Positions 2,139 through 45,689 of a stretch of DNA of 64,000 nucleotides are shown one piece after another. The stretch covers positions 59,956,001 to 60,020,000 of the forward strand of contig OZ076409.1 of the NCBI GenBank assembly GCA_964187785.1, written 5' to 3'. The stretch is from Amphiscolops sp. MND2022. Taxonomy: Eukaryota. The first letter of the stretch is position 1. Every line of letters starts with the position of its first letter. Made by a program: the position numbers and the translations under genes. Below the pieces are notes generated by a model that did no database searches, was not told where the DNA came from, and saw nothing but the letters and a program-made list of their open reading frames with translations.

Positions 2139-2328
2139 CTGAAAACATGCAAAATGTTGAAAGAAACATGTAAAAACATACAAACAACATTCTAAAAGCG
2201 TGACATTGACAAAAGTGAAACGAAAAAGGGCAATTTTCTTATACAGAATGTAAAAAAGGAGCTTGCTCAAACAAACTGAACATATCGTTCGAATTGCGCT
2301 CTCCACACAGGTTTAGAACCTAACAATC

Positions 2329-3057
2329 TGTAACGATAAGCGCTGGCGCTTGAACCGCAACGTAGAGTGGAGGAACTAGAACAGCGAATATAATCTGGGA
2401 CCTAGATCTCCGCGGCCCTAGCTCATTTTCCCTCCGAAGGAGCCAGTCCCAAGGTGGGGGAACCGTCTTGTAGGACGCTCTCTGGCCTGGTCCTAGTCTG
2501 TAACTGCTAAAAGTAACAGGCATCTTGCAAGACTCAAGACCACTGCTCAACTAGCCTTTAAAAATTGGGCTGAAAATCGATGAAGGTTGAACCGTAATAT
2601 TGGAGAATCTGATAAAATCGCCAAATTGAATAAACAGATGTTAAACAACAGCTCTCGAGCATATTAATCTACCACATCGAAAAATACAACAAGAAATCAA
2701 GAGTTCAGAGTCATTTGATGAGAATTGACCTCAGGTTCCCAGCGCTAGCGCTAGTTGCCACACAGGATACCGCAGGGATACTCAGGCGAACATCTGGAAC
2801 ACTGGTTTCCTTTACTGTAGTAATGGATATCTCCTAGAGATTGACACAATACCGTGTTCTGTATGCGTTGGGGACGTCTTCGTAGTCGTCTCCGGTGCTT
2901 GTTCGTCGCGAGCGGCGATTTCTGCTTTTTGGGGTGCTTTTTCTGGCAGGTACTTCGTCTTGAGCATGTTTGAGTACCACGTCAAATTGGAACGAATTTT
3001 TGACAAAATTTTCTAAACATGTCGGTTGATGTTGCTGTACCAGAGCTTGCCGTTACA
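2329..3057 (-). repeat. 3' LTR (729 bp) of giant Gypsy element
   Basis: TGTAACG...CGTTACA; differs from 20450-21179 by 3 substitutions and one T indel (by eye). Confidence 0.97.
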
Positions 3058-3066
3058 TCACTCCCC
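3058..3066 (-). promoter_or_regulatory. Polypurine tract (GGGGAGTGA) abutting the 3' LTR
   Basis: Purine-rich run immediately 5' of TGTAAC on the minus strand. Confidence 0.75.
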
Positions 3067-3861
3067 AGGCTCCTGGCTTGTCGTCCCTGGCAAGCGGCGT
3101 CTGGATCGTCTGGGAACTGCATCACAGTGACTGCTGGGAACCATCATCCACACATCGGGGAACAAGGACGAGTCCTTGTTTTTCGGCAACAATTTTGGTC
3201 GACTTTGCAGTTTTTTTACGAGAGAAAAAAAAAGAACTTACTGCCTAGCTATTCGTACAAAACATGAACGAGGTTTTAGCACCAGCTCGAGAGCTACAGT
3301 TTTCAGCCGGTTAAAATTCGTTTGGGCAGTCAACTTGTGTAAAAACCTTTTTGCGACCAAAGTCAGCTAAAATTTCTTTTCCTTACCATTTGAGACTACA
3401 AATCTTCAGTTCATTTCAGGCGATTAAAAACTTTTTTAGAGCTTGGGGGCTCTTACGGTGAACAACCAGATTGATGAAGAACACTAGACTAGAAAGAAAC
3501 GCAATCAAGAGGGATAAGACTTCTTTTGATTGTGACAACTCAAAAACACCGCGAACGGTGCGCAACAAAAATGATAGTTTTTTTGAACAATAGTTTTCTT
3601 TTCTTTCTGCTTGGTCACTCAAGCCACTGGGGCAGGCGTACTCTATTGGCCGTACACCCAGTGCAACACTAATGGTACACTAATTATATAACCATAACTA
3701 AGAACAAAAATTGCACTTTGTACTGTAGCACCGTTCTGGATGAGAAGTTTTGAGGCACTGTTTGTTGGCAGTTTATGAGGGTATAGGGAGCGCGAACGCT
3801 CCCATTAGCGGCTGGGTTTATTGAGCTGAACTGCGTCGGGTCCGCTCTTTAGTGGCATCAT

Positions 3862-6800
3862 CTAGGTTCCGTTCTGGGTTATCAGTCGACACTGACGCTC
3901 GACGTCGGGGAGAAACTTCTGTGGTAACTGTTTCAGAGTCCGACGGACTTTCGGGAGCGACAACTCGGCAATAGGCTGCACTAGTGCTGCATTGGGAGTC
4001 AATTCGGCAGTGTGCTCTCCGGACTGCTGCTGCGAGGACTGAGGGCTCGTTCGCGACGAAGACGGGCCAACTGGGTCTGGCTCCAAGTTATGGGTTGGAA
4101 GGTTAATGGTGATCGGTTGAGAGATGGGCCGATCCAAAGACATCGCCATCGTTGGTGCGAGCATGGTAGGCGCGAACGCCTGTTGTCTCGCTATCTCTGC
4201 TATACCTTCTACCGCTAGTGCTACACGGCGTGAGATCCATCCAGATTGGCTCCAGAGCTCGCAAGCTCTCTTCCATTTAGGGAAGCTTGCAATCTCCAAC
4301 TCCAGACAGTACTCTTCCCATCTCGCTCGTTCTGTTGAGCCCAACACGGAATTTATCTCATCATGCTGGACGATGGACATATCTCCAGACATGGTCATCT
4401 TTCCCGTAGGCTTCCATGCCGACTTCCTGGGGAATGGGATAACGCGGGATTGGAGATTCCTCTGCCTGATCTGAGCAGCGCCTTCAATCCATCATGGGAT
4501 CTGGGCTGACTCCAAGTGTTGGATTTGGCGGTTGAACACCTCTGGGGAGCGTCCAACGGGTTTTGCCCTGGGCCAACCTAACGCCTCCTTCCAATAGCGG
4601 TTTGGGAAGGCGATGCATTTGAAGCAGTACAAAGGGTCCACAGGTGGACCAGCACTAGTGCTGGCGCGAATCGCCTTCCTCATGAACTCTTGACTCCAGG
4701 GGAACCTAAAGGGGACCCCTTCCAAACTGAGAGGTGCGGAATACCAGTTCACAGGTCCATGCTCTCGGGGTAGAGGACATGCTTTCCTGGTGCGCGCGCG
4801 CAGCAAGCCCATCAAGTTCTCCTCCAACTCTCTTTCGGATTTTATGGTCGTGTACCCATGCGGCACCTCACCACTCAGCACTGCATGTATTATCTTGGAT
4901 ACGTCAGTGAGGGCCGGCCCCGCAGGTAGGTACTAAAGGAGACCATGTGCACTTGGACGGCTGTTGCCAATGGTTTAGTTGGGTATCGGCACACGCCCAC
5001 TGCGCCAAAGATAGGGGCCAAGACAGGAGCCATTGCTGCCACAAAATCTTCTACTTCAGCCAGGGTGAGATCTGCAATCTGCTGCGGCATGGGGAATCCT
5101 GCCGTTTCCCGTGAGATCTGCTGGTCGGAGTTATGTAGTGGTTGGGATTGGTCTACGCCCACGAATAGGCCGGAGGCGAACACCAGGGTGGAGTATAGCC
5201 AGTGCTGGATTGACGCACGCCAGTTGGGCGGAATAGTCTTGCTGGTCTTTGGAAGTCATCAAGTGTCCCCAACGGGTCAGACTGCGTAGTTGTCCTTGTG
5301 CCAGGACCAAGTAGCTGTAGAACACGGTGAGGTCGCAGGCAATTACCATGTCGGCTAACAAGGCCAGTGGTCCGGCTACAAACTTGGTTGGGCCCATCGC
5401 TAGCGCGAGCGCTAGTATTTCTCCGACGGTTGCCTCTCCAATTGTTTCTAACAGCTTGTCCGTTTGCGTAGAGGTCAGCGAGAACTCAGAAGTTAGTACC
5501 TCTAGGTTCCATCCTAGAACAAGACTGGTACAGAAGGCTTCCAATGGACAATTGAGCTCTCGAGCTACTTCTGCCAGAGTTCTGGTGGCAAACCTAGTCT
5601 GGTACCAATAAGCATAAGTTGTGGCTGCGGCGTCGACTTCTGCTTTCAGGTTTGTTGCTTCCATTGCTACGATACACCGCAGCCCTACAGGCAGCTTCAC
5701 GGGCTCGATTCCCGAGGCGAAGTGGATCTGAGGAATTGTTCTCTCGACGGTGCGCGCTGCAGGCCATGCACCAATTTGTTTTGTCAGGTCGGCTAATTCT
5801 GCGCGCACTGGGATTTCTTTATCTCTCTCGTTCGGTTACATTAGATTCTCGGGCAATGCGGTTGCCGTCAAGGTCAAAGGCCAGTCTGCCCATCCGCATT
5901 CCATAATCATAGAGGATAGCATCGTCAATGGTTAGCTGGGCGTTTCCCGAGCGTTCTATAGCCACAAGCGCTCTAGATACGGCGGCAAAGAAGGCTGGAT
6001 ACGATAAGGTATCTGGGCGCAGGTCCTCTCGGTCCACGCGCAAGTTCGGTGCACAGATGGCGAATTCGACTCTGCGCGCCTTGCACACCTCCAGCAGAAT
6101 GTAGACGAACTGCTGCAGACTTCGTGGCCAATACATGAATCCTGGTGGGGATACAAAGAGCGCGAGCGCTCCCAGACGACCCCGAAGGATCCCTGCGGCA
6201 CGTTCCATTGCACCGACCACCTCATTTACCAGGGCGGCAATGTCTCCAAGTCGTCGGACATTGGACATTATGGCGTCCAGGTCATGCAGCAATCCTTCAC
6301 AAGCCATGTGATCCAGAAGATTGGCAAAGATCACTCGCTGTGGGGGTGGTTCCTTTTGTGATCCTCTTAAGTTTGGATCGTATATGGCTCCAACCATCTC
6401 AGCGACCTCAGCGAAGCGAGACAGGGGCATAGTTAGCACCAGCACGTCAGGCATTAAATTGTCAATAGGGAGGTCACTTCGGCAAGTAGAATCAACTGCC
6501 ATGCAGTAGCGCGCACGCTGCAGAGCTGCTTTCAATAGGGGTTTCAAAGATCTCAGGTTGCGAGCGTAACGGGCGTTCGCCTCCCATGTCTCACCTTCTC
6601 GCAACACATACCGTGCGGGGAATTGCTCAGTGATATTGTGTTGCCGGGGCGCCATGTAATCGTTGGTTGTCATAGGCAGCTGCTCTCGAGCACGCTGTTC
6701 CCAAGCCTGCTCCGACATGTCTGCGTCACGGGGGGCGGAGCGAACGCGTGACTTACGCCGGTATCGTGGTCCGGTTGATCTCCTTTTGCTCCGTTTCAGT

Positions 6801-8070
6801 TGGAGGGGTCCTTTTCTTGATAGCGCATTGACTGGGGTAGAGATGCTCAGCCGCCATCCAAAAGCGTTTGCTATCATTGGTGACTACTGAGCCGGATACG
6901 TCGTCAGATGGAGGGAGAAAGGCTGGAGGATGGGCTTCCTCCACCGTCTCAGGTATCTCCAGGGACATATCTATTGGATTGGTACCCGAGGGCACAGAGC
7001 TCACTTCCGAGCCTGCATCCGGATCTCCATACTGTTCGATCGCGTCTGCTAAAGACATTTGAGGTGCGCTTCGGCCTAGATGACCTACCCGGTACGGGGG
7101 CCTAGGGATGACCACACTCTTCAGCTGGGGCCGAGGTACATCAGCGCGCTTGCCGGGAGGGGGACGACTAGTTGGGCTCTCGGTTACCGAGCCAGCTGGG
7201 GTAACTGAGAAGTTTCTTCAGTTAGCCGCTTTCTCCCCGCTTCTTCTCGTGTGCCAGAGGCAGCGCTTGCGCTGTTACTCGGTCCAGCGACAATTTCCAT
7301 ATCCATAGATGCCGTTTCGACTAGGGGAGCAGGAGGGTCACAGCCCGCGGGCTGAGCAGCAGCTTGCAGATACGTGGCTAATCCAGGGATTCTCTGCTCC
7401 ACGGCACGGACGAAATCGGTGGAGTTGGGATAGTTCGCCACTGCTTGCAAGGCCACAAGTACTGTTCGCTGGTACTCCTTCCCGTCAGCTCTGGGTTGGG
7501 TATGGGTGGTAACCGGGACCCCGAGGGCTCCCGATCAGAGACTGGTGCATTAGTAGTGGTTTGCAGTACCATGTGTGGCGCTCGATATGAGGTTCCAAAG
7601 GCAGGCGAACCGGAATAAGTTGGTACTGGATTTGGCGCTGGTGGGGGCAGTGCGACCATCTGAGGAGGAGGCATTGTTGCTACGCTGGCAGGCACCATAC
7701 ACAGTGAGGCTTCTTGCTCGAACCTCGTGCCCTGGCTGGGCCCGAGCATTGTGGTAGAACGTTCATCCAGGAACTGGTGCGTCAGATCGTGGCCATCCCA
7801 CGCATTGTTTTGGCAGGTTAGGGTGCGACGGTAACCGGCTACTTCCGTCACCAGAGACACGGATACGCCAGGCAGCGTCTGCATTGTGTCTAGTTGGGTG
7901 AGTAGGGCGGCCACGCCCGCTACCGCTAACGGTGAGAGGCCGTTCCTCAATCGCTCTTCTACGTATTGGACTTGATTAGTCCTCTGCGCTCGCGCAGGCA
8001 ATTCCTGAGTCCTATTGGCGTGAGGTCCCGTCGTGGAAATAGGTACCGTGTTGTTGGGGTAATAAGCCAT
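3862..8070 (-). pseudogene. Accessory ORF2 of giant element (~1,400 codons, disrupted): Pro/Ser/Thr-rich N-terminus, SGNH/GDSL-like domain, unknown helical C-terminal region
   Basis: Consecutive same-strand ORF pieces 7378-8070, 7184-7456, 6753-7115, 5819-6877, 5131-5808, 4890-5183, 4492-4881, 3862-4398 tile the region and join by frameshifts or an in-frame stop (4492). Confidence 0.8.
5954..6514 (-). CDS. Degenerate SGNH/GDSL hydrolase-like domain within ORF2
   Basis: Block order YCMAVDS (GDS-like), VLTMPLS (PG-like), VIFANLLDH (GxND-like), ALFVSPPG, EDLRP..SYPAFFAAV (DxxHP-like, His->Arg). Confidence 0.55.
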
Positions 8071-8082
8071 TATATCATAGGT

Positions 8083-8103
8083 CTAAAAAGGATTACCGTT
8101 AGG
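8083..8103 (-). promoter_or_regulatory. Putative branch point and splice acceptor upstream of ORF2
   Basis: Minus strand CCTAAC-ggtaatc-CTTTTTAG| 12 nt before the ORF2 ATG at 8070. Confidence 0.5.
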
Positions 8104-8361
8104 CTTACCAAGTGCATTGTGGGGAGAGCTTAAGGCTCATCACTCAGCAGCAATAGTACAAAGATGGTTCCATAGGGGAACCGCAACAAGTTTAAATTGT
8201 AGTTCAACTAACTAATTAGAACACAAAGATAGAAGTTATCTAACGCTACGTTACAATGTAATCATTTCATGGGATGGTTTAACACTTCCTCCCAGGTATA
8301 ACGATTATCGGGGTGGGTAAATTAAATAAAGGGGGGGGCAACAAAAAGAGTTTTGGGCGGG

Positions 8362-9720
8362 CTACTCCAGCCCAATGTTCAGGAAGGACACATACACGCG
8401 GTTATGCAGCACTACGTGAATGCCAGTGCCCTCCAGCAAATTCGTTAGGGTATGGTATAAGTTTACCAATAAGAGGGCGGGTCGCTCTGGATCCAGTATA
8501 GGTAGGTGGACCCTCGTGGATCCCTTCTCCATCAAACGCCGTATCAAGTGCGTCATACAACGTAGGTAGTCGTCTGCGAGCAGCGGCGCACGCTGGTTTG
8601 CTCTGATTATTAGCAAGTGAATACTCTGACTGGGGTTTGGGTTGATATCGGGAGGAATGGTGAGAATCTCCCCCACCTTAGGACGTAAGGAGAATACGTT
8701 CTCCTTACCGCATTCTCGTAGCACGTACCGTAGGGCAGCTGAGTTGGTCTCTAGGTCAGCGGGACACGCTAACACCATATCACCTTTTACTTGAAGAAAA
8801 TCAGTCACATCATATGAGAGGTGCTCTGTTGGGGCTGGATGCAGGATTCCCGGGTAGACAATCTCTCTCCCCGGCCCATTGTTGGCAGGCAAGCATACGC
8901 GGGGCGTACGCCCCTGGATTGCAGCCAGGTCTTGCCATACCGAGCGTGGCATCGCTCGGTTATCACTGCCCGCCCTAACCCATGTGTCTAGGGTGCTCAA
9001 AACGGCTTTCGGAGGAAGCGGAATCTCGAAAGTATGAGTCCACTCGTCCAGCAATCTAATGCGAGGATAATTGGGGAAACAAGTGATGATCAGCTCCAAC
9101 CACCACGCGAATTTCACTTTGCCACGATACCAGTCTATGATGTGGAAGCAAAGTATCAAGTCCGCGGTAGTGAGGGTCCTCAGACCTTCCAAGCAGGACA
9201 GCAGGTGCAATGGTTCCACTATTGCCTCCACTCGTGGAGCAGTGACCAACAACCACCAGTGCGGCGCTGGGCTGTATACTCCGCCCGGATCCACGTGAAT
9301 TCCGTATTTGTCACAGAGAAGATCAGCGGTGATGCATCGGACCATTTGCACAGGCTCCCGCTCGAAGTTGAAGGGTCCAAAAGCAATATTGCTGGGTACT
9401 GGGGGCATCACCGTTGCGAGGGTGAACTCTAACCCTTTCCCGTCGCTAGTCCACTCCTTGAATCGAGGACATGGGGCCTTCGCTACTCCAGGTAGTGATA
9501 ACTTCTCCAGGGTAGTATCCACGGGATGGTCTCCGTGTCGTTCCAGGGAGGAATAAGTCTTTTCAGCTCTCACCGTAAGGCGATGTACTAGATTTTCTCC
9601 CCGCTCTGGAGGGACTCCCCGGGCTCCAGTGGGAACCCTCCGGTTCTCATTGACGGCTAGCAAGCAAACACAGTCTCGCAGCCCACAGGTCCCGCACTTA
9701 TAGCGTGGCTGCCGTCTGCT
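8362..9720 (-). CDS. C-terminal extension of Pol: Cys cluster plus two tandem degenerate TARG1/OARD1-like macrodomains
   Basis: Frame continues RYQL[R]SRRQPRYKCGTCGLRDCVC-LLAVNEN after restoring 1 nt at ~9722; repeats at ~9046-9393 and ~8401-8823 align by eye to the TARG1 pattern. Confidence 0.65.
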   Translation of the reverse strand, partial: SRRQPRYKCGTCGLRDCVCLLAVNENRRVPTGARGVPPERGENLVHRLTVRAEKTYSSLERHGDHPVDTTLEKLSLPGVAKAPCPRFKEWTSDGKGLEFTLATVMPPVPSNIAFGPFNFEREPVQMVRCITADLLCDKYGIHVDPGGVYSPAPHWWLLVTAPRVEAIVEPLHLLSCLEGLRTLTTADLILCFHIIDWYRGKVKFAWWLELIITCFPNYPRIRLLDEWTHTFEIPLPPKAVLSTLDTWVRAGSDNRAMPRSVWQDLAAIQGRTPRVCLPANNGPGREIVYPGILHPAPTEHLSYDVTDFLQVKGDMVLACPADLETNSAALRYVLRECGKENVFSLRPKVGEILTIPPDINPNPSQSIHLLIIRANQRAPLLADDYLRCMTHLIRRLMEKGSTRVHLPILDPERPALLLVNLYHTLTNLLEGTGIHVVLHNRVYVSFLNIGLE

Positions 9721-12700
9721 TCCAGTTGATATCGGGAGACCTCGGAAGCCTCGGTCGGTATTGCTGTTTCCGACGGCATTGTTGTTGTAGTTTCTTTCTT
9801 CCTCGTTCTTGCCTTCGCTCTGACCAGCCTTTTTCGCGTTTTGGGTGGTCTCCCCCTCCCTCTTTTGAAAGAAGGAGCGGTCCCCGCTCCGGGCAATGTT
9901 GTGGGAAGAGTAGGGACATTGGACTGAGCGTCGTCATCCTCAGTGGCGGATTTCAGAGGAAGGGAAGGAGCGGCCGGCCAAATGGGATAGTTATTGAGGA
10001 AACTCGTCAGTGATGGATTTGTCAGTAGTGGGGCCGATGTTCCCAGTAAGGAGGGCTGTTTTTCGGGAGAGGATATTCGTGGTGACGGAGAGCGCGCGCG
10101 CTCATGGTCGGAGAATAGTTGAGGCAGATGATGGGCAGGTGATATTGATTGGTCTGAAGGGAGTTGGGGTTCGGGCTCCCTGCGATCAGCATCAACGGGA
10201 TCAGGAGGTACCGGTAGCATGATTTCGGACAACTCGTCGTCAGTGCCCGAAGTTGAGTAGTCGAATTGCTGGTAGTGCATGCGGGAACCTCCAGCACGTA
10301 ACTTTGTGCGCAGACGGGTATCCATCCAATGTTGCTTGCGCGAAGGCAAGGATACGTCAGATGCTTCTGAAAGTAGTTGTTCAGTTTTATATGAAGGCTG
10401 GGACTTATCGTCGTCAACTGCTTCAACAGAACGTTCAGGGTCAGGGTCCATGAGTACCACTATTTCGCCGCTGTCTGCTTGCGCGGTGGCGAGCTCAAGC
10501 TGCCCACTATTATGAGGTTTCAGGCGCTTAAAATGAACCTTTTGGCCTGTGTCCAATACGTAGACACGTCCTTCTTGAAAGACTTGTACTATTTTGTGCG
10601 GGCCACGCCAGGCGCGCATCAGTTTGGGAGAGCCTTTTTGCGGCACATAGCGGCAAAAAACCCAGACAAGCTCTCCCGGCTGGTAAGCTCGTGCTCGGAT
10701 AGCACGATCATATTTCAGTTTTTGGCGCGATTGGGCTTGGTGCGTGTTGCGCCGGACCAAGTCGTGAATTTCTTGTTGGCGAGCCAACACATGATCCACG
10801 TATGCTTCATGCGTATCGAAGGACTTGGCTGCAAATTCAGGGTATAAAAAGGTGAGGGGAATTGCTTTCTCAACACCCCTTGTTAACATATAGGGCGAGA
10901 AGCCTGTAGTGGCGTGCCTGGTGGAATTATAGGCATCGATTACTTCATCTAAGCACTGGTCCCAGTCGCGCATGCGACGTGAGCAAAAGACTCGCAACAA
11001 GGTTAAGAGGGTGCGGTTTTGCCGTTCCACCAAGCCTTGAGTTCGTGGATGTCCGGCAGTCGAGGTCACCTTAGTGACGTGAGCTGCCTTTAGAAACTCA
11101 TTAGAGACTTCAGCAGTAAGGTTGGGGGCATTGTCTGATTGCATGCGAGTGGGGGTGCCGTGGCGGGCAAACCATTTCTGCAGCAGCAATCGTGAGGTGG
11201 TCACTGCGTCATAGTCATGATGACTACAAGGGACTGCCTCTGCAAATTTAGAGAAATGGTCGATGATGACCAAAATGCCAGTGTTGTTGTTATCAGAGGG
11301 GCAGATTTTTAAGTGGTCATATTGGACCAGCTCGTTGAAGTAGCCACTCTGAATGTTTTTCAATTGGAATCGTACGTCACCAGGCTTGTCACGTATTTGT
11401 TGGCAGGTGAGGCATTGGCCGACGTATCGACCGACACTGCGCCGTATGCCGGGCCAAGTGTGGCGCTCTTGAATTCGAGCTACCACTTTTGAGATACCTT
11501 GGTGTCCCATTGCGTCGTGCGCGCGGAACAGAATCTCGTGCTGGTACAGTTGAGGCATTATGATCATGCACGGACGTTCGTGCATTGGGCGTTGGGTGGG
11601 GGAGTATTGCACGCAAAGGACATCATTCTTGTTTATGAAGAAGAGATCCTTTTTCTGGCGGAAGTAATTACGTGCGAACTCACGCACGTTCTCGGGAAAC
11701 ACATCGTTATCTAGGGATTCACACTGCACGAGCTTTTTCAGCGCTAGCACATGGACATCGCGGTTTTGGGCTAAAACCGAGTCCTTGATCCCATGCAGTG
11801 TAAGTGTGTGTTCATGGAGCTCGGTGTCGATGTCCTTGAGGGCCATGATCGACTCGCGCACGCCACCAGGAGAGTTCTGTAGCATGGCGTTACTCGTTCC
11901 CGTCACAGAATAGATGGTGCGCGAGGGGACATTTACTGCATGTGTTGGCAGCAGGTAATCCTCGCTGGCCTCAGTGGTGACGTCTATCCAGTCTTCAGGA
12001 TAGTCTGGATAGAAGTCCTCGTGCTTCTGTAGCACGGGTGGAGGCTGAGGCGGTAAAAGCGCGGCTAGCGCCTTCGCCTGTCGTTTTCGCTTGTTCGCTC
12101 GTTGCACACGGCGAAGCACACGGAGTGCCTGGTCAGGAGCCTTAGGCTCCAAGTTCTGCAGATGCGGTGGTAGGTCAGGATGATTTGGAATGATTCGACC
12201 TTGCAGGTCGAACCATGGGGCTATGGGGAGGTTGTCGAATTCCTCGGCCGAGAGGAAGTTCCAACGCTCTCCAGTAGCTGCCAGCTGCGCAAGCTGCTGT
12301 TCTCGGCATTGATAATCGTTGGTTCGTTTGCTCAAGCCATCAGCATTGCGGTGTTGCGTTCGTGGTCTGTGTTCCACGCGAAAGTGATACCTGTCCAGTG
12401 TCATAATCCAACGTCCAATCAATGCTTGGTCCGTGGAGTAGGTTTTCAACCAAGATAGGGCTTGGTTGTCGACTCTCAGGGTGAACTTTCGGGGAAAAAG
12501 GTAGCTGTGGTACTTGAGGATGAAGTAGTAGGCAGCAAACATCTCCAGCTTGGGTGCCCCATATTTGGCTTGGGTGGTGGTCAGTTTTTTGCTGCCGTAT
12601 ATGATCGGTGGTAGGCGTCGCTCTCCTGGAGCTCCTTGCCACTGGTGTAGGATACCGGAAATGGCAACGGCGCTGGCATCGGTGTCCAGCACAAACTCTC

Positions 12701-15700
12701 CTTCGGAATCAGGCTGCGCGAGCGCAGTCGCCTCGATCAATGCTGTCTTGATTTCGTTGAAGGCTTTTTGTTGGTCAGGACCCCATGCAAATGTGGCATT
12801 CAGTCCCGTAACGGCGTGGAGGGGCGCCACCAGCTTGGCATGCCACGGGATGAATTCACGATAATAATTAGCGAATCCCAGGAAACTTTGCATTTCAGTT
12901 TTGTTGCGTGGGATGTCCCAATCGCGCAGTTTGGCAACAGCTTTCGGGTCCGGTTTGACACCTTCTGCTGAGACCACGCGTCCCAGATATTTGATTTCTG
13001 GTTTCATGAAGTCGAATTTGGCTACGCGCATCTTGAAGCCAGCTTCGCGGAGGCATTCAAAAACCTCGCGCAAACGCGCCATGTGATCTTCCACAGTCTC
13101 AGTTGCTACAACTATGTCGTCGATGTATGCCATGACCATACTGCCTTTGCGATTGACTATTTTTTGCAGCGCTCGCGCTATTGCTCGCTGGAAGGTGGCT
13201 GATGCATTGCACAAGCCAAATGGCATTCTTCGCCATTCACAGAGTCCCAACTCACAGGCAAAGGCTGTTTTGTGGCGGTCCGCCTTTCGCAAGGGAATTT
13301 GCCAGAAAGCCCAGGCAAGATCTATGCTGGTGTAGATCTTTGCATTGCCCAGTCGCGCCAGGCTTTCATCGATACGGGGCAGGGGGTAGGCATCCTTAAT
13401 GGTTACTTCATCCAGCGGTCGGAAGTCACAGCAAAAGCGTAACTCCCCGCTTTTCTTTTTTACCATTACGATACCACTTGCCCATGGGGACAGTGAAGGT
13501 TGTATCATCCCTAAGGCCAATAAGCTCCGAACCTCCTGGTTGGCTCGTTCAGCCTTTTCGGGGGACATTCTCCGAGCACCTTCACGGTGCGGTACAGCCT
13601 CAGGCTCTACCTCTATGGTGTGTTTAGCAATGGTACAGCGGCCAATATCCGCCTTGCGTTTCATGAATAGGTCATCAAACTCGTTAAGAATGTTGTCTAA
13701 GGACTCGCAGGCGCTAGCGCCCCAGAGTTTCTTGACTTCTTGCAATTGAGAATCGGGCCCAGGGATCGGGGCCAATAGGTCGGGATCGGTGCGCTTGCGA
13801 ATCTCGCGCTCCGAAAGCCCCGCTTCACTTGGATCCGTAGAAGACAAAAACTCAAATTCAGATGAAGAAGTTAACTCAGAAGCAGTGGATAGATTCATTT
13901 CACTGTATACTTTATAAACAAAATTTGCTCGACTGTTGTCGGCTTCAGTTTTGTGGTCAGCTTCCACAGTAGCATCCAGCTTTTGGGGCACAGCCTGGTA
14001 TACTAGAGACACAGGCACTACCGTGCCTAGGTGGGCACCACATCGTACACGCTGCTGGTTGCTGGTGAGGTTTACCAGGCTCACATACAGTGTTCCTGTC
14101 TCACTGACAGTGGCCACGCTGTCCTCTAAAAAGATGGTATTTTGCAATGAGGGATCAGACAACGAGGCGTTAAGCGCAACGGTCTGGAAGATTAATGGTT
14201 CAAGCGCGTTGGTGACAAGTTTGGCCTTTGCCACTGTACGCTCGAAAGGCTGTACGACTAGGTCACTGTCCAGGGTAATGGGGGTAGTTAACGAAGCGTC
14301 ACCTACCTGGGTGTGTGCATGATGCCAGACGGGCTTCACCGGTGCTCGCACCACTATCTTCATGGAGGTTAGATCTACCAAGACTTGGTAGGAACGGAGG
14401 AAGTTTCGACCCAACAGAAAGTCCTCCACGCCCATTGCGTCATCTACCACGACGAAATTGGTTTCGAGTTCATACCCTCCCAACTGGAAGCGTATCTGCT
14501 CAGCCAACCCGAAAGTCTTTATTGTCTTCCCATTGGCAGCGTACAAATCAATTTGATAGGGTTTCAGGACCGCTCCGGTCCGTGCAGCTACCCGGTTGAA
14601 GGCGGAGAAGGTTAGTATGGATACTCCGGAACCAGTGTCCACCAGGCCTCGCAGTGGGGTAGGTGCCGCATGAGGCACCACAAAGGAGACAACGAGCGAC
14701 GCACGCTCATCTATTCGCGCTTCCCCGGTGGGTTCTTGGTGGTTGAGATTATAGCATTTCAGCTCTTGAGGTCCCAAGCATAAGCCGGGTGGGAATACAT
14801 CTACCACCACACAGGCCTCGAACTTCACGTCCACGCCGTCCATCGTTGCACAGACTGGTACTGGCGAGTACGTAGTCAGGATCTCCGACTCTCCAGGGAC
14901 GTGCCACTGTTTTGGGCGGGGCAATTCCATCCGGTTATAGAGGACAGATAGCTCAACCCAGAGTTTCGCCAAGGTTAACGTTGGTCTACGCACCTGCTCG
15001 GCTGCCAGCATAAGATGAATCGAGATCAACGTTCTCCCTTGTGGATCGAACGTTGTAGGCTCCAAGCACGTCTGAATCTGCTTTGCCCCACATGTAACTA
15101 TCAGTGGGGCGTGAAACGCTGGGTGCTCCGCTGGGTGTAGCATTAATACGCGATCATCTTCCAGGGGTACCGTGTGGGCGGCCACACCAGCGGATTCCAC
15201 TTCAGCCCATCGATTGTAGGCCAATTCATCATTAGGCCTCGGAGCTTGAGAATGCTCACTACAGGGGACATCCACATGGTCATAGACTCCACAGTGCGCA
15301 CACTGATGAATGCCTGGATAGCTCTCCAACACGCCATCAGTTACGTCTTCAGCAGTGACTTTCACGCCTTCTGGTTCAGGAGCTGCCACTGGTTTGCGAG
15401 CTTGATCGCGGGTGGGACAGTCCCGGGCAAAATGCCCAGCTTGACCGCAATTATAGCACGCGCCAACGGGTAGGCGTGCCGCAGGCTGCACTGCTGCTTG
15501 ATTGGGGGGAGCATTACTCGCAGGTGGGGGAGGCATTACTCCTTGTGGTAACACCATTTTGTTGGGGGGTAGTGGCGCGAAGGGATGAGGTCGAGACCTC
15601 ATTGCTAGTCTGGGGTCATAGGGTTGAGGGAATTGGTTAGGTTTTGGACGGTTGCGCTGCAATTGGCGGGTGGTGAAGCGGAGGGATTCCACAGTAGGTG

Positions 15701-15923
15701 GCTCGGTCAGGAAGACTTCCGAGGCATACACTATGGCCAGCTCCCGCCTCAGCGCTGGGTCTCGTACACCTTCCATGAAGCGCTGGAGGATTTCATAGCG
15801 CTTAGTGGTGATTGCCTCTTGTGGGAATCCTTGACTCCGAAGACCCTCTAGAGCGTCTAAGTACTGCATCCAGTCTTCTTTCTCTTGTTGAATGCGGCTC
15901 TGGAAAGCTTGTCGCACTTGCAT
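9657..15923 (-). CDS. pol: Largest open segment of gag-pol (2,088 aa): capsid C-terminus, zinc knuckle, PR, RT, RNase H, integrase
   Basis: Canonical Ty3/Gypsy motifs in the order PR-RT-RH-INT. Confidence 0.95.
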   Translation of the reverse strand: MQVRQAFQSRIQQEKEDWMQYLDALEGLRSQGFPQEAITTKRYEILQRFMEGVRDPALRRELAIVYASEVFLTEPPTVESLRFTTRQLQRNRPKPNQFPQPYDPRLAMRSRPHPFAPLPPNKMVLPQGVMPPPPASNAPPNQAAVQPAARLPVGACYNCGQAGHFARDCPTRDQARKPVAAPEPEGVKVTAEDVTDGVLESYPGIHQCAHCGVYDHVDVPCSEHSQAPRPNDELAYNRWAEVESAGVAAHTVPLEDDRVLMLHPAEHPAFHAPLIVTCGAKQIQTCLEPTTFDPQGRTLISIHLMLAAEQVRRPTLTLAKLWVELSVLYNRMELPRPKQWHVPGESEILTTYSPVPVCATMDGVDVKFEACVVVDVFPPGLCLGPQELKCYNLNHQEPTGEARIDERASLVVSFVVPHAAPTPLRGLVDTGSGVSILTFSAFNRVAARTGAVLKPYQIDLYAANGKTIKTFGLAEQIRFQLGGYELETNFVVVDDAMGVEDFLLGRNFLRSYQVLVDLTSMKIVVRAPVKPVWHHAHTQVGDASLTTPITLDSDLVVQPFERTVAKAKLVTNALEPLIFQTVALNASLSDPSLQNTIFLEDSVATVSETGTLYVSLVNLTSNQQRVRCGAHLGTVVPVSLVYQAVPQKLDATVEADHKTEADNSRANFVYKVYSEMNLSTASELTSSSEFEFLSSTDPSEAGLSEREIRKRTDPDLLAPIPGPDSQLQEVKKLWGASACESLDNILNEFDDLFMKRKADIGRCTIAKHTIEVEPEAVPHREGARRMSPEKAERANQEVRSLLALGMIQPSLSPWASGIVMVKKKSGELRFCCDFRPLDEVTIKDAYPLPRIDESLARLGNAKIYTSIDLAWAFWQIPLRKADRHKTAFACELGLCEWRRMPFGLCNASATFQRAIARALQKIVNRKGSMVMAYIDDIVVATETVEDHMARLREVFECLREAGFKMRVAKFDFMKPEIKYLGRVVSAEGVKPDPKAVAKLRDWDIPRNKTEMQSFLGFANYYREFIPWHAKLVAPLHAVTGLNATFAWGPDQQKAFNEIKTALIEATALAQPDSEGEFVLDTDASAVAISGILHQWQGAPGERRLPPIIYGSKKLTTTQAKYGAPKLEMFAAYYFILKYHSYLFPRKFTLRVDNQALSWLKTYSTDQALIGRWIMTLDRYHFRVEHRPRTQHRNADGLSKRTNDYQCREQQLAQLAATGERWNFLSAEEFDNLPIAPWFDLQGRIIPNHPDLPPHLQNLEPKAPDQALRVLRRVQRANKRKRQAKALAALLPPQPPPVLQKHEDFYPDYPEDWIDVTTEASEDYLLPTHAVNVPSRTIYSVTGTSNAMLQNSPGGVRESIMALKDIDTELHEHTLTLHGIKDSVLAQNRDVHVLALKKLVQCESLDNDVFPENVREFARNYFRQKKDLFFINKNDVLCVQYSPTQRPMHERPCMIIMPQLYQHEILFRAHDAMGHQGISKVVARIQERHTWPGIRRSVGRYVGQCLTCQQIRDKPGDVRFQLKNIQSGYFNELVQYDHLKICPSDNNNTGILVIIDHFSKFAEAVPCSHHDYDAVTTSRLLLQKWFARHGTPTRMQSDNAPNLTAEVSNEFLKAAHVTKVTSTAGHPRTQGLVERQNRTLLTLLRVFCSRRMRDWDQCLDEVIDAYNSTRHATTGFSPYMLTRGVEKAIPLTFLYPEFAAKSFDTHEAYVDHVLARQQEIHDLVRRNTHQAQSRQKLKYDRAIRARAYQPGELVWVFCRYVPQKGSPKLMRAWRGPHKIVQVFQEGRVYVLDTGQKVHFKRLKPHNSGQLELATAQADSGEIVVLMDPDPERSVEAVDDDKSQPSYKTEQLLSEASDVSLPSRKQHWMDTRLRTKLRAGGSRMHYQQFDYSTSGTDDELSEIMLPVPPDPVDADRREPEPQLPSDQSISPAHHLPQLFSDHERARSPSPRISSPEKQPSLLGTSAPLLTNPSLTSFLNNYPIWPAAPSLPLKSATEDDDAQSNVPTLPTTLPGAGTAPSFKRGRGRPPKTRKRLVRAKARTRKKETTTTMPSETAIPTEASEVSRYQLEADGSHAISAGPVGCETVFAC

Positions 15924-18900
15924 ACGGTTTCATCCAGCGCCAAAGCGGCTGGATAACAATTCGAACACTTTCTCGGGGGTGTCACGTTCGGATTCCGCTT
16001 TGTTAATGATGTAGTTGCGGGCTTCACCTTCAAGGTGACCGATGATGCTCCAAGCCTGGTCCTCGGCTGAGACCTTGGTTTGTGTTCTCTTCAGGTATCT
16101 CTGCATAATAAGGATCCACCCATCAATGGATCCGTCTTTGGACCCGCGATATACATTGGGCCTCGCCTGAGCCAAGTCTCTGCCGGCGAGTAAGGGCGCT
16201 AACTCTTTTGACATCGCCTTTGATATGGCGGCCGTGAATCTCAGCTGCTCGGGGGATATGGCTTCTCTTTCATCGGCCTTGGCCTCCCCCTCGCGCGTCC
16301 TGTCATGACTACCAAGAGTGGCTTGTATCGACAGGTCGGCGATTTCGTCCTTTTTACGAGTGCTGCTAGCACAGGGAGTGCCCGAGGGCAGTCCATGATC
16401 GGCTGACAAGTCTGCGGTCAAGTATAGGGAATCTGGTCCTGACATCGAAATGGGGGCAGTTGCAAACGTTGCTCCCTCGGTTTGAGAGCCTAGGGTTGCT
16501 TTGGTGTTAGATAGGTCGACTTCAATCGAGGAATCAAGATAGGTGGTCGACATCGGGTCCACGCCTTGATCTCGAGTGGTACTCTGGATTGCAGAAGGCA
16601 TCGATGATTCTGCTGAGTCGTGATGTCCCCTCATCTGCACTCGCGCAGGCTTGCGCTCTGCTTCAGGCGTGGCTATCACCAAATTTCCGGCTACTCCTTC
16701 ATCTTTCCGGGGCGCAGGCACTGCCGGCCTGGAAGTGCTAGGCTTTAGCGCGCTCGGCAGTTCCGATTTCACTACCTGGCTCGGGCACGTCGGCTCCGAG
16801 ATACGGACTGGACCTCCATTCCGCACGCCTCCACTTGCACTGGGCTGCCGCGGGAGTGACTTCTCACGCCTCAAGACATCAATGGCATTGAGTACCGTGT
16901 GCATCTGATTGTTTAAGTCGTTGATCTGCGTTTCCACGCGCAGATCGCGAGCCATCAACCTGTCATTCATCTCTCCTATCCGGTGACCCAATGTGTCCAC
17001 TCGAGCTATTTGCACATTCTGCGCGGTGCGCAATTGATCACTGACCTGCAGGCCTTCACGCATCGTCGTCTGCATCACTTTAATGTTCTCTACGATGGCA
17101 AGGTGTTGCTCATTGCATTCAGCACGAGTGCTGGCCAGACCTGCTAGGGCCCGTTGGGTTTCGGCTTGGGCATCCAATAGTGCTGCCTTGTATACTGAAG
17201 ACCGTTGCGATGAGGCCAATGAGCCTGTCATACTCCTGACACGGGATACCTCTTGACGTGGCTCGCCTACCTGTAGTATAGGTGGTCGCACCTTCTTGTG
17301 CTTCCCGTAGGCACAGACCCGGGTAGGTCCTCGAGTGGTCCCGAGTCCCCGCTGTCGCGCGTAACTCATGCCTCCCACATAAGTGAGGTCCTGCTCCATG
17401 CCAGTTTGTGAGCCAAGTTGTCTTTTTCCAGCCGGGGGTGCGCGCGAGCACCCTTCCTCTGCCGCCAGTTCATCGGTCATATATTCGAATTAGGCCAGCC
17501 CTCTTCCACTTCATTAGCTCTATCGCGGCAGGTTTCGTCGACCCACTGCTCAGTTCGACGCGAATTTGCAGAAACACTGGAGTTCTCTGAGGGAGGAACC
17601 ATAGCGGCCAATTCCTCCTTTCGCTGTTGTTCGATAGTGACTTCGTCAGACATGTCGTCTGAAAAACGCGAACCCTCTATCGTGACCCATGATTGTGAAC
17701 CAGTATGGGACACCGCCATCGGTTCAGTGGCCAACGCGTTTATCAATAGCGATCAAGATACCGCTCACGATTACTCGGAAGACTCAAATTGGGTCGACGA
17801 ACGCACCAGGGTCTTCAATTCGAAGCTGATCCCTTGGTCGTCCCGGTGAGCACTTAAGAATTTTGATGGTATTCAACGTTCTAGATTTTTCGAAACACGT
17901 TCTAGAGCTCGTAGGCTGTTCAAATTTGCACAGCGTTTTTCCACAAGCACACTGGGCTAGAAAATCAACTTGGTTTGGGGCAAAAAGTCTCCAGTCACCC
18001 ACAGGAAGGATTTCAAGGAACTTTTGGATTTTTCAAAAATCGCACGACAACTCTCCAAAGGCTCGGGTGTGCACGGGAAGCGCCGTATCCAGCCCAAAAT
18101 TGACCAGCAGATCTTAGGTACACGTAGGTTTACGAAAATGAACACAGTTTTGAGCTGCGCCCCTTCTACACAGTTTCACCTAGGTACAGACGTGCGGTAC
18201 CACTATGTACCGAAATACAATGTTTTTCACGTCTTTTTCAAGATTGCGGTGCACGGGAAAGAGCTAGCAAGCTCAAATTCTCTGCAACGACGTAGGAACT
18301 AGCACAAGTTACGATGGTGGGTTGCAATGTAGCCCCAATATAGCCCCACCCGTCGGCTAAGGTGCCCGGGTTACTTGGAAAAATTAAGAAAAAAACTGCC
18401 TTTTTGGACACCTTTTTGGGCTCCACGTTTTTTCTATTTTCTCGACAAGTATCAGACAGATCGGCACCAAACTTGGTAGTCTATGCCAGCAGGCACTCAC
18501 AATGCCACTAAAATGGTCGAATTGAAGCGCGAGCGCTTATTTGAGTTTTCGACTCAATATGTACGTTGTACACGAAAAAACACTGTTTTTGACTACTTTT
18601 TTCACAATTTGACCAAGAGGATCACCTCAGGAAGTGATACGGCTGGCAAAATGGGACTAACGTGTTGCCCCACTATCCGGAGCACTGGGATAAACCCTCA
18701 ATTGGTCGTGCCCGTTAGGTATAAGGCACTGACAGTCCTGTAGTTTTGGAATTTTTCGGCTTTTATGTGCTTTTCTGAAGTCGAAACGTCAGAGAGCTTT
18801 TCTCGACTTTGGTGAGCGATACGCTCGCCAAATTTTCGGCACTAACGTTAACTTTTGTGGTGGTTACGAAAATGCAACCACTTTTTGGCTAGGGTTCAGG

Positions 18901-20416
18901 AATCGATGACCCGACCCTAGCTCGGAGACAGTCCGGTTTTGTGGAAAATTGACCAAATTCAGTGCGTTTTTCCACTTTTCTCAGCACTGAACAGGAATTT
19001 TTGCACGCGGTTTTCACCACAATGCGTTGTTTGTATTATAAAAACAGAAAATAGGAGCGCGCGGGCTCCCCGGTCTCGAAAACGCTGAGTGCCCCAGAGG
19101 TTTTAATGATGCACTCTGGCGCTCCTGAAACTGGCCAAAAATCAAGGTTTTTCAACTTTTCTCAACGTTGAAAAGGAATTTTTGCATGCGGTTTTCACCA
19201 CAATGCGTCGTTTTTGCTGCTACAATCGAAAATGAGAGCGCTCGAGCCCGCTCTTTTCGAATTAGCTTTGCTCTGGGTGTTTTTGGTTAATGCACTTTCT
19301 CTACTCGGAAATGCCAAAAATCACAAGTTTTTCGCACTGTATCAGCCCCAGGCTGCCTGAGTCCGCTACAAAAGTTGCAATTAGTATCCTGAGGGTCAAC
19401 TACACTTGGGATAGTGCCGTACACTGTCATTTTACACTTCCACACTCGTGTCAGTCACATTTTGGGTGCCTTTTTGGCCAAATTTCCACTTTTTTCACAT
19501 TTTTCGGCATCAAATTGGCACTTTTATCACAATCAAAGGCTTCAACTTCGCCTTTCGTGCCTCGTGCCGGCTTTCTCGAGCCTGGAAGCTGCTTTTCAAA
19601 ACTTTCCACCACACTTTCCTGGCTTCTGTGAGCACTAGTGCTCGAAACCAAGAAAAACACCAAAAAAAACACAAAAATGAGGTTTTTTTCCCAAGTGCTA
19701 TCTTTTTCGCAGAAAAGCACTTCGTTGGGTGTCGTTACATTTATAGTAGAACGTCACTGACCTACACCATCGATTCTCCATCGAAAGAGGTGTATTTTCA
19801 AAATTTTCGCCAACCATACTCCATCTGAGCGACTCATCTGGTCCTAGGGGGTGCATCTTCACCACGTTATTTCTCCACTTCTAGACCAGATAGAAACACG
19901 CGGATGGAACCATTAGCACCGTCTGTCGTTGTACTTGCTGTCCACCAAAAACCATGCCTCTAGGACGTCTCCACGAGAAATGGGAATAGGAAGTAGGCAA
20001 CACAATATTTGTCCCCTCCTTCGCCTCGCTGGAGCATGGTCAACCATCCATCCGTTACCCTCTTGCATGGCATAAAATGGCTGAAAATAGCTCAAAAAAC
20101 CTGTTAGACACCCGTAGCCACGTGCTACGGTCCTCTACACCTGCAAAAAGGTACCCGCTGATGGGTACACAACACATCACACATAAAGAGCGATTTCCTT
20201 CTAAAATGCCCAAAAATACCATTTTCGCACCTGAAAGCACGCTTTCTTCGGCATTTTCTCTGGTTCAACGCCTCTCCCAGTTCCAGTAAGACGTAATACG
20301 ACTAAAAAGAGGTAAAACTCTGCTCTTCTCTCCTGTCCAGAGTCGAAAACGGGCTTGGCGCTGAACACCAGGGGGCCAGATCTTTTAAAAACCGCTAGGG
20401 AAAGCTTCCCAAGACG

Positions 20417-20434
20417 ATCCCTCTGTGGTCGCCA
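20417..20434 (-). promoter_or_regulatory. Primer-binding site TGGCGACCACAGAGGGAT (tRNA-Arg-like), 15 nt downstream of 5' LTR
   Basis: Starts with TGG (complement of tRNA CCA) and resembles the 3' end of tRNA-Arg(TCG); conserved at 48818-48835. Confidence 0.75.
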
Positions 20435-20449
20435 AAAAATGAGTTTCTT

Positions 20450-21179
20450 TGTAACGATAAGCGCTGGCGCTTGAACCGCAACGTAGAGTGGAGGAACTAG
20501 AACAGCGAATATAATCTGGGACCTAGATCTCCGCGGCCCTAGCTCATTTTCCCTCCGAAGGAGCCAGTCCCAAGATGGGGGAACCGTCTTGTAGGACGCT
20601 CTCTGGCCTGGTCCTAGTCTGTAACTGCTAAAAGTAACAGGCATCTTGCAAGACTCAAGACCACTGCTCAACTAGCCTTTAAAAATTGGGCTGAAAATCG
20701 ATGAAGGTTGAACCGTAATATTGGAGAATCTGATAAAATCGCCAAATTGAATAAACAGATGTTAAACAACAGCTCTCGAGCATATTAATCTACCACATCG
20801 AAAAATACAACAAGAAATCAAGAGTTCAGAGTCATTTGATGAGAATTGACCTCAGGTTCCCAGCGCTAGCGCTAGTTGCCACACAGGATACCGCAGGGAT
20901 ACTCAGGCGAACATCTGGAACACTGGTTTCCTTTACTGTAGTAATGGATATCTCCTAGAGATTGACACAATACCGTGTTCTGTATGCGTTGGGGACGTCT
21001 TCGTAGTCGTCTCCGGTGCTTGTTCGTCGCGAGCGGCGATTTCTGCTTTTTTGGGGTGCTTTTTCTGGCAGGTACTTCGTCTTGAGCATGTTTGAGTGCC
21101 ACGTCAAATTTGAACGAATTTTTGACAAAATTTTCTAAACATGTCGGTTGATGTTGCTGTACCAGAGCTTGCCGTTACA
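20450..21179 (-). repeat. 5' LTR (730 bp) of giant Gypsy element
   Basis: Near-identical to 2329-3057; followed on the minus strand by spacer and PBS. Confidence 0.97.
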
Positions 21180-21410
21180 ATCAACTTTCAAGCTACAGCT
21201 GAGCTACTTTGTGTATTTCGGCACTGTGTGACATTTTTGGTCAACTGACAATTCCAGTCTTCGGAAAACGTTTTTTGTAGCTAAAGGGTGTCTGTTCAAT
21301 GTTTTTCCAGCATTTGGAGAAGTAGCAATCAAGTTTATTCAAAAGACAGCTTTTCGACTTTTCCAGTCTCAAGCGGTGTTCCCTTTTTGTTCTGGTTTTC
21401 TGCTTAGTTC

Positions 21411-30749: not shown

Positions 30750-31357
30750 ATAGGACAACACAAAGTAGTGAATTCCAGAACGTGATAGCTTGGTTGGTAG
30801 CGCGAAAAGCTGCGGCATAATAGGTAACCTGATCAAGCTGCAGTTGGCGTCAGTTTTTGTTTGTTTTCATTCACTTTTGTCAGTTCATCTCTTGAATTTC
30901 TTGGCACGATCTTGCAAGATCTTGCAAATTCGTGGATTTCTTGATAAAAATCTTGGCAAGATTCTTACCAAGAAATTCAGGAATATCCAAGATTCTTATC
31001 AAGAGTTGCAAGAGTTTTTACACTGGGTTGTTTTTCGATAGTTTCTGTTGCTCGGTGACTTGGTCTCGAGACCACATTAGTTAGAAGCTTGCAAGGATGA
31101 AAAATGGAAGAAATCACCGCTTCAAATTGATTTCTGCTATAAATAAGATTTCCTGACCAACTTGGCCCAATTATTCGAGTCTGGGTCCATATCATTTTCA
31201 CCCAGTGTTTTTTATAACAAAAACTGGCGACTCTTACAGTAACAAAACATTTTACTAGGATTTAAAATTCCAATCTTAAAGGAAGACTAGAATTTATGTA
31301 GAAACTAACTTTTACGAATAAATAAAACATCGGAATTCCGATGTTTCACCTTTTCTA

Positions 31358-31453
31358 ACGCACTAACAGAATCTTGAATAGTACCTAGCATCTAGAGACA
31401 GGATTAATCCTGTCTCTAGATGGTAGGTACTATTCACAATTCTGTTAGTGCGT
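31358..31453. repeat. 96-bp loopless palindrome (copy A)
   Basis: Arms centred on GGATT|AATCC, a few mismatches. Confidence 0.9.
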
Positions 31454-32607: not shown

Positions 32608-32703
32608 ACGCACTAACAGAATCTTGAATAGTACCTAGCATCTAGAGACAGGATTAATCCTGTCTCTAGAAGCTAGGTACTATTCAAGATTCTGTTAGTG
32701 CGT
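32608..32703. repeat. 96-bp loopless palindrome (copy B)
   Basis: ACGCACTAACAGAATCTTGAATAGTACCTAGC...; arms differ at one position. Confidence 0.92.
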
Positions 32704-45296: not shown

Positions 45297-45689
45297 TGTA
45301 GAATATCAGAAAATGTATAAATAGACTGTTGATAAACAACATCATATCTCTGTTGCTATGTTTAGTTTGTTTACTAACAACTACTGAGTTTATACTCTAA
45401 AAGCTTACATCAGTATACTACATTTGCGATTAGAGTAAACGTTGATTCTCAACTCTTTTACGAAGCTTATCCTAGAGATACTTCATGGCGCTGTCAGCAA
45501 TTGAAATTTTGCAGAAGAAAAGAAACGATACAAAACAATGGAGAACGAAGACGGCAATACAACTGGACAGACCAGTAGCCAATCAATCCACAACAACACA
45601 ACAACTAGATCGGTAGAACGGACAACTACACAGAAGTTATCCATTCCGAAGCCGACCAAAACAGATTCATCTACAACCGGCAGTCGGTA

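Follow-up and report, generated by a model that had tools for sequence, protein, structure and literature searches.

Within a 64,000-nucleotide stretch of the genome of Amphiscolops sp. MND2022 (assembly GCA_964187785.1, contig OZ076409.1, forward-strand positions 59,956,001 to 60,020,000; hereafter, the window), a giant long terminal repeat (LTR) retrotransposon, which we assign to a family denoted A, occupies positions 2329 to 21179. Comparison with its relatives suggests that it probably represents a giant Gypsy-type lineage with target-site duplications (TSDs) of 3 bp, in which dead enzyme-like domains would have been kept as structural and nucleic acid- or protein-binding modules.

Organization of the element

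The element is 18,851 bp long, lies on the minus strand and has TG..CA ends and an internal part of 17.4 kb. Its LTRs (2329-3057 and 20450-21179) are 99.45% identical, with four differences in a self-comparison, and the first gag ATG is located ~2.73 kb from the 5' LTR. The first-pass annotation of this stretch, which had described a complete element with near-identical LTRs and a ~2.7-kb leader, was borne out on the LTR structure except for the 3-bp TSD (ATC on both sides), which it missed. It had further described a Gag-Pol of ~3,100 codons and a second open reading frame (ORF2) of ~1,400 codons. Both frames are broken in the window copy, gag-pol by a stop at 15930-15932 (in gag) and by frameshifts near 17,480 and at 9,610-9,720, and ORF2 by several breaks; natural open frames of these approximate sizes are found in other copies. 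The Pfam domains detected in family A are the zinc knuckle, protease, reverse transcriptase (RT), RNase H (RH) and integrase, in the Gypsy order, with zero Pfam matches in the accessory parts. The features, in window coordinates, are as follows.

2329..21179, minus strand: full-length but defective family A copy, 18,851 bp; ~97-98.6% match to six other copies of 18.8-18.9 kb
21180..21182, plus strand: right copy of the TSD, ATC, 3 bp
20450..21179, minus strand: 5' LTR, 730 bp, TG..CA
20417..20434, minus strand: primer-binding site, 15 nt from the LTR
17720..20449, minus strand: leader, ~2.7 kb; contains 23 upstream ATGs and a single duplication of 181-bp period
8362..17764, minus strand: gag-pol in one frame; 3,128-3,132 codons where uninterrupted, broken in the window copy
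15630..16170, minus strand: Gag capsid-like region, approximate bounds; weak PNMA match in another copy (E 0.009, short of the cut-off)
15414..15461, minus strand: CX2CX4HX4C zinc knuckle (Pfam PF00098, E 8.6e-8)
14727..15128, minus strand: putative pseudo-protease, retropepsin-like, lacking the DTG aspartate and immediately preceding the intact protease
14340..14717, minus strand: aspartic protease with intact DTG
13980..14342, minus strand: dUTPase-like domain without dUTPase motifs
12387..13463, minus strand: RT (YIDD) and RNase H
10512..11555, minus strand: integrase with H2C2, DDE core and a GPH variant of GPY/F (WRGPH)
8974..9393, minus strand: candidate first, reduced macrodomain-like unit, probable and unconfirmed
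8398..8835, minus strand: predicted TARG1/OARD1-like pseudo-macrodomain at the gag-pol C-terminus (K84 to R, G123 to E, D125 to P)
8083..8102, minus strand: splice-acceptor-like motif, 12 nt before the ORF2 ATG
3818..8070, minus strand: ORF2; 1,439 codons where uninterrupted, broken in the window copy, not in families D and E
5950..6530, minus strand: SGNH-like region of ORF2, fold unconfirmed
3061..3066, minus strand: polypurine tract (GGGGAG), separated from the 3' LTR by 3 nt
2329..3057, minus strand: 3' LTR, 729 bp, four differences from the 5' LTR
2326..2328, plus strand: left copy of the TSD, ATC, 3 bp

Copies and sister families

Genomic copies were collected by their LTRs, as the first-pass annotation had proposed; 40 of 2,314 candidates were scored, all at 98% or higher, and the copy counts reported here are lower bounds. 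Copies of the C-terminal gag-pol region at 95% identity or more number at least 117, four of which have open frames of 3,128-3,132 codons, and the ORF2 core is found at least 134 times, with open frames of 1,439-1,440 codons in 25 cases. Six fetched copies match the window copy over their full length, with break sites that differ from copy to copy. Family A is thus a young, recently amplified and abundant Gypsy-type LTR retrotransposon. Because these six copies match along the entire length, the accessory parts are not nested insertions, one of the outcomes that had been named as refuting the original proposal; they are in frame and present in the numbers of copies given above.

Five families of the lineage are present in the genome: A, B and F measure 18.9, 19.2 and 19.5 kb, and D and E 15.1 and 15.8 kb. 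A further one, C, is represented by a single older copy. Families A, B, D, E and F share the pol modules, and the Gag capsid-like region retains 53-71% identity among diverged families. ORF2 is missing in D (2 of 2 copies) and E (3 of 3), and the LTRs of these copies are 99.6-100% identical. A decayed older sister fragment, 72-77% similar to the LTR and leader of family E, lies in the window itself at 48064-53028 (plus strand).

As a control, we used another large, unrelated Gypsy family present in this genome (loci L241-L252). It is 16 kb long, with 1.5-kb LTRs, a 1,731-amino acid (aa) pol that includes a dUTPase-like domain, 5-bp TSDs and much unexplained internal sequence; its RT is 28% identical to that of the lineage described here, and neither a pseudo-protease nor a macrodomain match was found in it. 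Given this family and Burro, at more than 30 kb, the size of the element, which had been singled out as notable, is indeed giant but not exceptional on its own.

A 3-bp target-site duplication and an unusual priming configuration

In all 24 insertions of the lineage with both ends readable, the TSD is exactly 3 bp (A, 16 of 16, three of them solo LTRs; B, 2 of 2; D, 2 of 2; E, 3 of 3; F, 1 of 1), and these five families have TG..CA termini. Seven further loci were left out (end missing, damaged, or not a solo LTR); among the A copies, one has an altered last LTR base and one other was read by eye. In the control family, the TSD is 5 bp in 5 of 6 copies, the sixth being unreadable, and three ordinary metagenome elements, read by eye, have TSDs of 4, 5 and 5 bp. 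LTR elements mostly generate 4-6-bp TSDs, Troyka being the 3-bp case (Kojima 2025, PMC12440569).

From the duplications, we infer that the integrase cuts its target with a 3-bp stagger. The integrase core of the window element reads SDNAPN; DNA[PT]N is found in families A, B, D and E, and distant relatives mostly read D[QR]G..F. This loop presumably touches the target DNA, which we take as a lead only. At 54359-54733 (plus strand) of the window, a stretch that by eye looks like an LTR end runs straight into an integrase-like fragment of another Gypsy element.

The primer-binding site is an 18-nt match, including CCA, to the 3' end of the host tRNA-Arg(TCG). The 15-nt spacer that separates it from the LTR has similar counterparts in B, D, E and F, whereas in the control family the primer-binding site is flush with the LTR. 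RNA structure around this site is unremarkable (z 0.45). The polypurine core GGGGAG is also found in families B, D, E and F. Genes for the primer tRNA form a tandem array with a period of ~174 bp on C9 of this genome, from 57.537 Mb (L070-L072); the tRNA-Arg pattern has 256 matches genome-wide, and 99 of the 100 matches listed sit in this array.

Among 25 PDB sequences, the closest solved structure to the RT-RH region is Ty3 RT (E 3.8e-70; next, 1.5e-46). A remnant of a distant RT-RNase H, at 24% identity, is located at 45629-46894 (plus strand) of the window.

The pseudo-protease and the dUTPase-like domain

Two retropepsin-like copies stand in tandem, the first of which lacks the catalytic D[TS]G. 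This first copy is alignable in 25 of 25 polyproteins, none with the catalytic aspartate, and xTG remnants are recognizable in several relatives. In hhalign comparisons with a protease profile, it reaches 95.6% when all relatives are included and 23% with the six closest rows, compared to 1-8% for controls; a PDB sequence search with the five-family profile gave no match. The profiles thus support a retropepsin-like domain, here one without the catalytic aspartate.

The adjacent dUTPase-like domain reaches 86.8% against a mixed profile (the host dUTPase and the dUTPase-like domain of another Gypsy element) and 4.6% against two true dUTPases alone, with no match in a PDB sequence search. In the alignment, the catalytic motifs of the host enzyme are not present. 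We regard it as a putative dUTPase-like domain on the profile comparison. Such a domain also occurs in the control family, and dUTPase-like domains between protease and RT are known in Burro (PMC6431247) and in rotifer elements (PMC5408684).

A TARG1-like domain with a probably blocked pocket

The C-terminal domain of gag-pol matches TARG1 with E 9e-34 (10-row profile, half of it distant relatives). Its model, built from 11 sequences of the close families only (mean predicted local distance difference test, pLDDT, 70), superimposes on TARG1 (4j5r) with Z 15.4 and a root-mean-square deviation (rmsd) of 2.5 Å over 136 aligned residues. In these respects, it resembles the TARG1/OARD1 (C6orf130) and DarG macrodomains, from which it differs by its fusion to an integrase and by the replacement of K84, D125, S35 and G123. 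In the alignment, the position of K84 is taken by Arg, that of G123 by Glu and that of D125 by Pro or Ser; S35, G41 and G43 are likewise substituted in the window copy. Both K84 and D125 have catalytic roles in TARG1 (PMC6397177), and the catalytic pattern TKx(30,35)Px[IL]GxGxD from the same source occurs in none of the five families of this genome and, among 14 distant relatives, in three (five if relaxed). Together, profile and model firmly show a predicted TARG1-like fold without the catalytic residues. Of 24 polyproteins, 17 give a score for a macro unit at the C-terminus. Used as a single sequence, the macro region retrieved nothing meaningful in the PDB sequence search, and the atlas search gave only one sub-threshold macro lead (0.87).

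Two motifs, DPER (in each of the five families and in 27 of 30 family A copies) and CPA[DN]L, are invariant in this domain. In human TARG1, the G123E substitution abolishes ADP-ribose binding and activity and leaves RNA binding intact (PMC5928194). These observations bear on one alternative explanation, namely, that the macrodomains bind ADP-ribose or poly(ADP-ribose) as decoys, shielding the element from a PARP-based host defense in the manner of viral macrodomains. The TARG1-like fold is shared with viral macrodomains, and some distant relatives keep the catalytic pattern, so that the ancestral role was plausibly ADP-ribose removal; nevertheless, Glu occupies G123 in 5 of 5 families, the change that blocks binding in TARG1 (PMC5928194), and S35, G41 and G43 are replaced in the window copy. 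We therefore consider a decoy function unlikely, for the last macrodomain in particular, and, by analogy with TARG1 carrying G123E and with the OSK domain of Oskar (PMC5785220), tethering to nucleic acid or chromatin would be the likelier role. The earlier suggestion that pseudoenzymes serve here as binding, decoy or targeting modules is partly supported: the accessory parts are integral and conserved under selection, and three of the modules are enzyme-like yet have no catalytic residues.

Upstream of this domain, a first unit shows the strand and helix order of the second and was included in an alignment to the PARP14 tandem macrodomains (249 residues aligned, rmsd 17.3); a first macrodomain-like unit is only suggested by these comparisons. 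Between the integrase and the macro units (window ~9650-9900, minus strand), there are an AT-hook-like KRGRGRP and a CxxC-x4-CxC motif, the latter conserved in A, B, D, E and F.

ORF2

No Pfam or PDB sequence match was obtained for ORF2, and the atlas search returned nothing. One part has motifs reminiscent of the SGNH hydrolases: DST is invariant in eight full-length rows, N..DH is conserved and an RP-like motif is invariant, with Arg in place of the block-V catalytic His according to our own motif assignment. An SGNH fold is suggested only. A clade relative, P0262, carries at residues 1315-1855 an intact SGNH domain and, after it, a degenerate second SGNH-like repeat with a weak resemblance to the window ORF2 (16.7% in hhalign). 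Approximately residues 720-1300 of ORF2 are 24-42% conserved between families, with no assigned domain.

ORF2 is preceded by a splice-acceptor-like motif (a branch-point-like CTAAC, a pyrimidine tract and AG), found by pattern search in A and F and by eye in B and C. This motif, the env position of ORF2, its loss in some families and a single hydrophobic segment scoring 1.7-2.1 could be taken to suggest an env-like protein for cell-to-cell spread, which would make the element an infectious agent akin to endogenous retroviruses. Such a role appears improbable, given that no fusogen match was detected in Pfam, PDB or the atlas, that no N-terminal segment exceeds a hydrophobicity of 1.33, and that the conserved core is SGNH-like.

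Another possibility is that the modules are not dead but re-tuned, for example, with ORF2 acting as a serine hydrolase or the macrodomain having an altered substrate. The invariant motifs of ORF2, those of the last macrodomain (DPER and CPA[DN]L) and the intact SGNH domain of P0262 would be compatible with retained chemistry; the block-V position without His, the pseudo-protease without its aspartate and the missing dUTPase motifs make it rather unlikely.

Selection on the accessory modules

Between families, synonymous sites are mostly saturated, and the modules keep 24-66% identity. In the sole unsaturated pair, D versus F, represented by single copies, the ratio of nonsynonymous to synonymous substitution rates (dN/dS), a measurement proposed along with the original annotation, is 0.01 for RT; among the accessory modules, the pseudo-protease stands at 0.05, the two macro units at 0.08 and 0.09, and the dUTPase-like domain at 0.12. 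These values point to purifying selection on the accessory modules and show translation under constraint, not a specific function, because the post-integrase linker is at 0.09 as well.

A reading of the accessory parts as neutral relics or as nested insertions would fit a window copy broken in both frames and an ORF2 that is dispensable. We rejected this highly improbable reading on the copy counts and dN/dS: the parts are in frame, occur in at least 117 and at least 134 copies and are kept across families with saturated synonymous sites, with dN/dS of 0.05-0.12.

A wider clade

Searching long proteins with RT-RH yielded 451 matches, 120 of them listed. After removal of 83 of 121 segments as redundant, a tree comprised 38 rows; it was rooted at the midpoint, with ordinary search matches as the only outgroup, without named GyDB or Repbase clades. 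Twenty-six rows formed one clade (support 100/100), separate from 12 ordinary Gypsy rows. The clade takes in proteins at 43-57% identity, two of which, P0256 and P0262, are not themselves in this genome (best match, 22-34% identity); therefore, other hosts carry the lineage.

A Pfam scan of 20 clade relatives detected Macro in five, a GDSL domain in one and an Upf1-like helicase in two. The latter, P0296 (3,697 aa) and P0298 (3,930 aa), have a C-terminal Upf1-like superfamily 1 helicase in place of a detectable macrodomain. Among 80 metagenome loci, only L153 clearly belongs to the clade. This 21.6-kb contig, in which no LTR pair was found, contains a giant relative at 3813-21067, with a 1,667-aa gag, a 2,197-aa pol that includes a pseudo-protease and a 1,808-aa third ORF downstream. 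The downstream ORF shows GDS and GGHND motifs and a weak SGNH profile match (18%); its SGNH-like part retrieved nothing meaningful in a PDB sequence search. A scan of IMG/VR revealed no relative.

Comparison with described elements

The element shares with Ty3/Gypsy elements (Metaviridae) the protease-RT-RH-integrase order, TG..CA LTRs, the CX2CX4HX4C knuckle, a GPY/F-like motif (GPH) and a tRNA primer site, and differs in its 3-bp rather than 4-6-bp TSD, the 15-nt spacer between LTR and primer-binding site, the tandem pseudo-protease, the C-terminal TARG1-like domain and the size of its products (gag-pol of 3,100 aa and ORF2 of 1,440 aa). Its RT-RH is closest to Ty3-type enzymes among solved structures. 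Because its TSDs are 3 bp (24 of 24) and not 4-6 bp, the latter being a typical trait of Ty3/Gypsy and not a phylogenetic definition, we describe it as Gypsy-type and place it in no named clade.

Troyka elements (PMC12440569) resemble it in the 3-bp TSD, single gag-pol and domain order; in their description, however, the ends are CG..CG, the knuckle is CX2CX8-10HX4C, a GPF/Y motif is lacking, the LTRs span 100-400 bp and the internal part is at most 7.7 kb, as opposed to TG..CA, CX2CX4HX4C, WRGPH, a 730-bp LTR and 17.4 kb here. Membership in Troyka was rejected on four features despite the shared TSD length.

The planarian element Burro/GYPSM1 (PMC6431247), compared by its description, is likewise giant, with a multi-domain polyprotein and a dUTPase-like domain between protease and RT; at more than 30 kb, with an internal part above 20 kb, it carries BIR, ankyrin, MATH, BCL2-like and env-like parts, whereas the present element, with its 17.4-kb internal part, has no BIR, ankyrin, MATH or env-like Pfam matches. 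The portion of the Burro description covered here names no macrodomain or pseudo-protease. In the bdelloid Juno and Vesta elements (PMC5408684), a dUTPase lies between protease and RT, and a GDSL/SGNH ORF downstream of pol has been gained and lost among families; these rotifer ORF3s keep their catalytic residues, unlike the SGNH-like part, without His, of the 1,440-aa ORF here. The OSK domain of Oskar, an RNA-binding SGNH fold without catalytic activity (PMC5785220), is a precedent by analogy only. Helicase cargo is known in retroelements (PMC6338049), and a review of fish retroviruses names a 'macro domain' (PMC4977317).

Size, dUTPase-like cargo, GDSL cargo and helicase cargo thus have precedents. 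For size, these are Burro and Ogre. In the portions of the literature covered, with Repbase, GyDB and Dfam outside the search, we found no description of this architecture, of a tandem pseudo-protease, of a pocket-blocked TARG1 domain or of a TG..CA element with a 3-bp TSD. The claim of an undescribed lineage accordingly holds as far as a real giant Gypsy-type lineage is concerned and, for its novelty, within that scope.

Other features of the window

Two tandem 1.25-kb copies, 95% identical and with internal inverted arms, lie at 30750-33252. At 58087-58692 (plus strand), a 201-codon frame resembles, by eye, the first helices of a rhodopsin-type G protein-coupled receptor.

Discussion

The reading we favor as probable is that of a giant Gypsy-type lineage with 3-bp TSDs whose dead enzyme-like domains are retained for structural and binding roles. 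Transfer RNA-primed reverse transcription followed by integration is established for Ty3/Gypsy elements, and the motifs of RT, RNase H, integrase and protease, all of them intact and in a single gag-pol frame, together with the primer-binding site and the polypurine tract, suggest that the standard process would take place inside a Gag particle. The integrase would cut the target with a 3-bp stagger and would trim the unusually long cDNA overhang expected from the 15-nt spacer. The pseudo-protease might pair with the adjacent protease, damping or timing cleavage of the polyprotein. The TARG1-like domain fused to the integrase would neither remove nor bind ADP-ribose and may instead tether RNA, DNA or chromatin. 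ORF2 would be an optional factor produced from a spliced RNA; being optional in cis and absent in the young D and E families, it would act in trans.

Several points weigh against this interpretation. The pairing of the two proteases is conjectural, and the binding roles of the modules are predictions. The residue mapping of the last macrodomain comes from a 13%-identity alignment and a pLDDT 70 model of 11 sequences, and the profile scores of the first macro unit are not significant. The dN/dS values come from one pair, in which the post-integrase linker is equally constrained (0.09). ORF2 reaches only 0.6% against an intact SGNH profile, a fold match that is not significant, and its SGNH-like serine is invariant, so that residual chemistry is possible. 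The TSDs of distant relatives are unreadable, so that any tie of the integrase loop to the 3-bp stagger is putative. Of the five dead modules proposed in the first-pass annotation, the last macrodomain is firm and the pseudo-protease and dUTPase-like domain are backed by profiles, with the first macrodomain and the SGNH-like region being suggestions that fall short of significance.

More tentatively, an undescribed, multi-host clade of giant LTR elements with a tandem pseudo-protease could be envisaged, one branch of which would have acquired a 3-bp stagger independently of Troyka, converted a captured TARG1 enzyme into a pocket-blocked, integrase-fused tether, and come to share a large, optional second protein in trans. 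If so, this clade would provide a natural series from enzyme to pseudoenzyme within a single group of transposons and would constitute a class of elements overlooked by finders that demand 4-6-bp duplications.

The 3-bp duplication has been treated as a hallmark of Troyka (PMC12440569); its occurrence with TG..CA ends breaks a rule for classifying and detecting LTR elements. The lineage is also a natural case for how an integrase sets its stagger. Full-length copies from families abundant in this genome would escape programs that by default require 4-6-bp TSDs. Finally, a clade with both intact and pocket-blocked TARG1-like domains makes catalysis versus binding by accessory enzyme folds testable on single domains.

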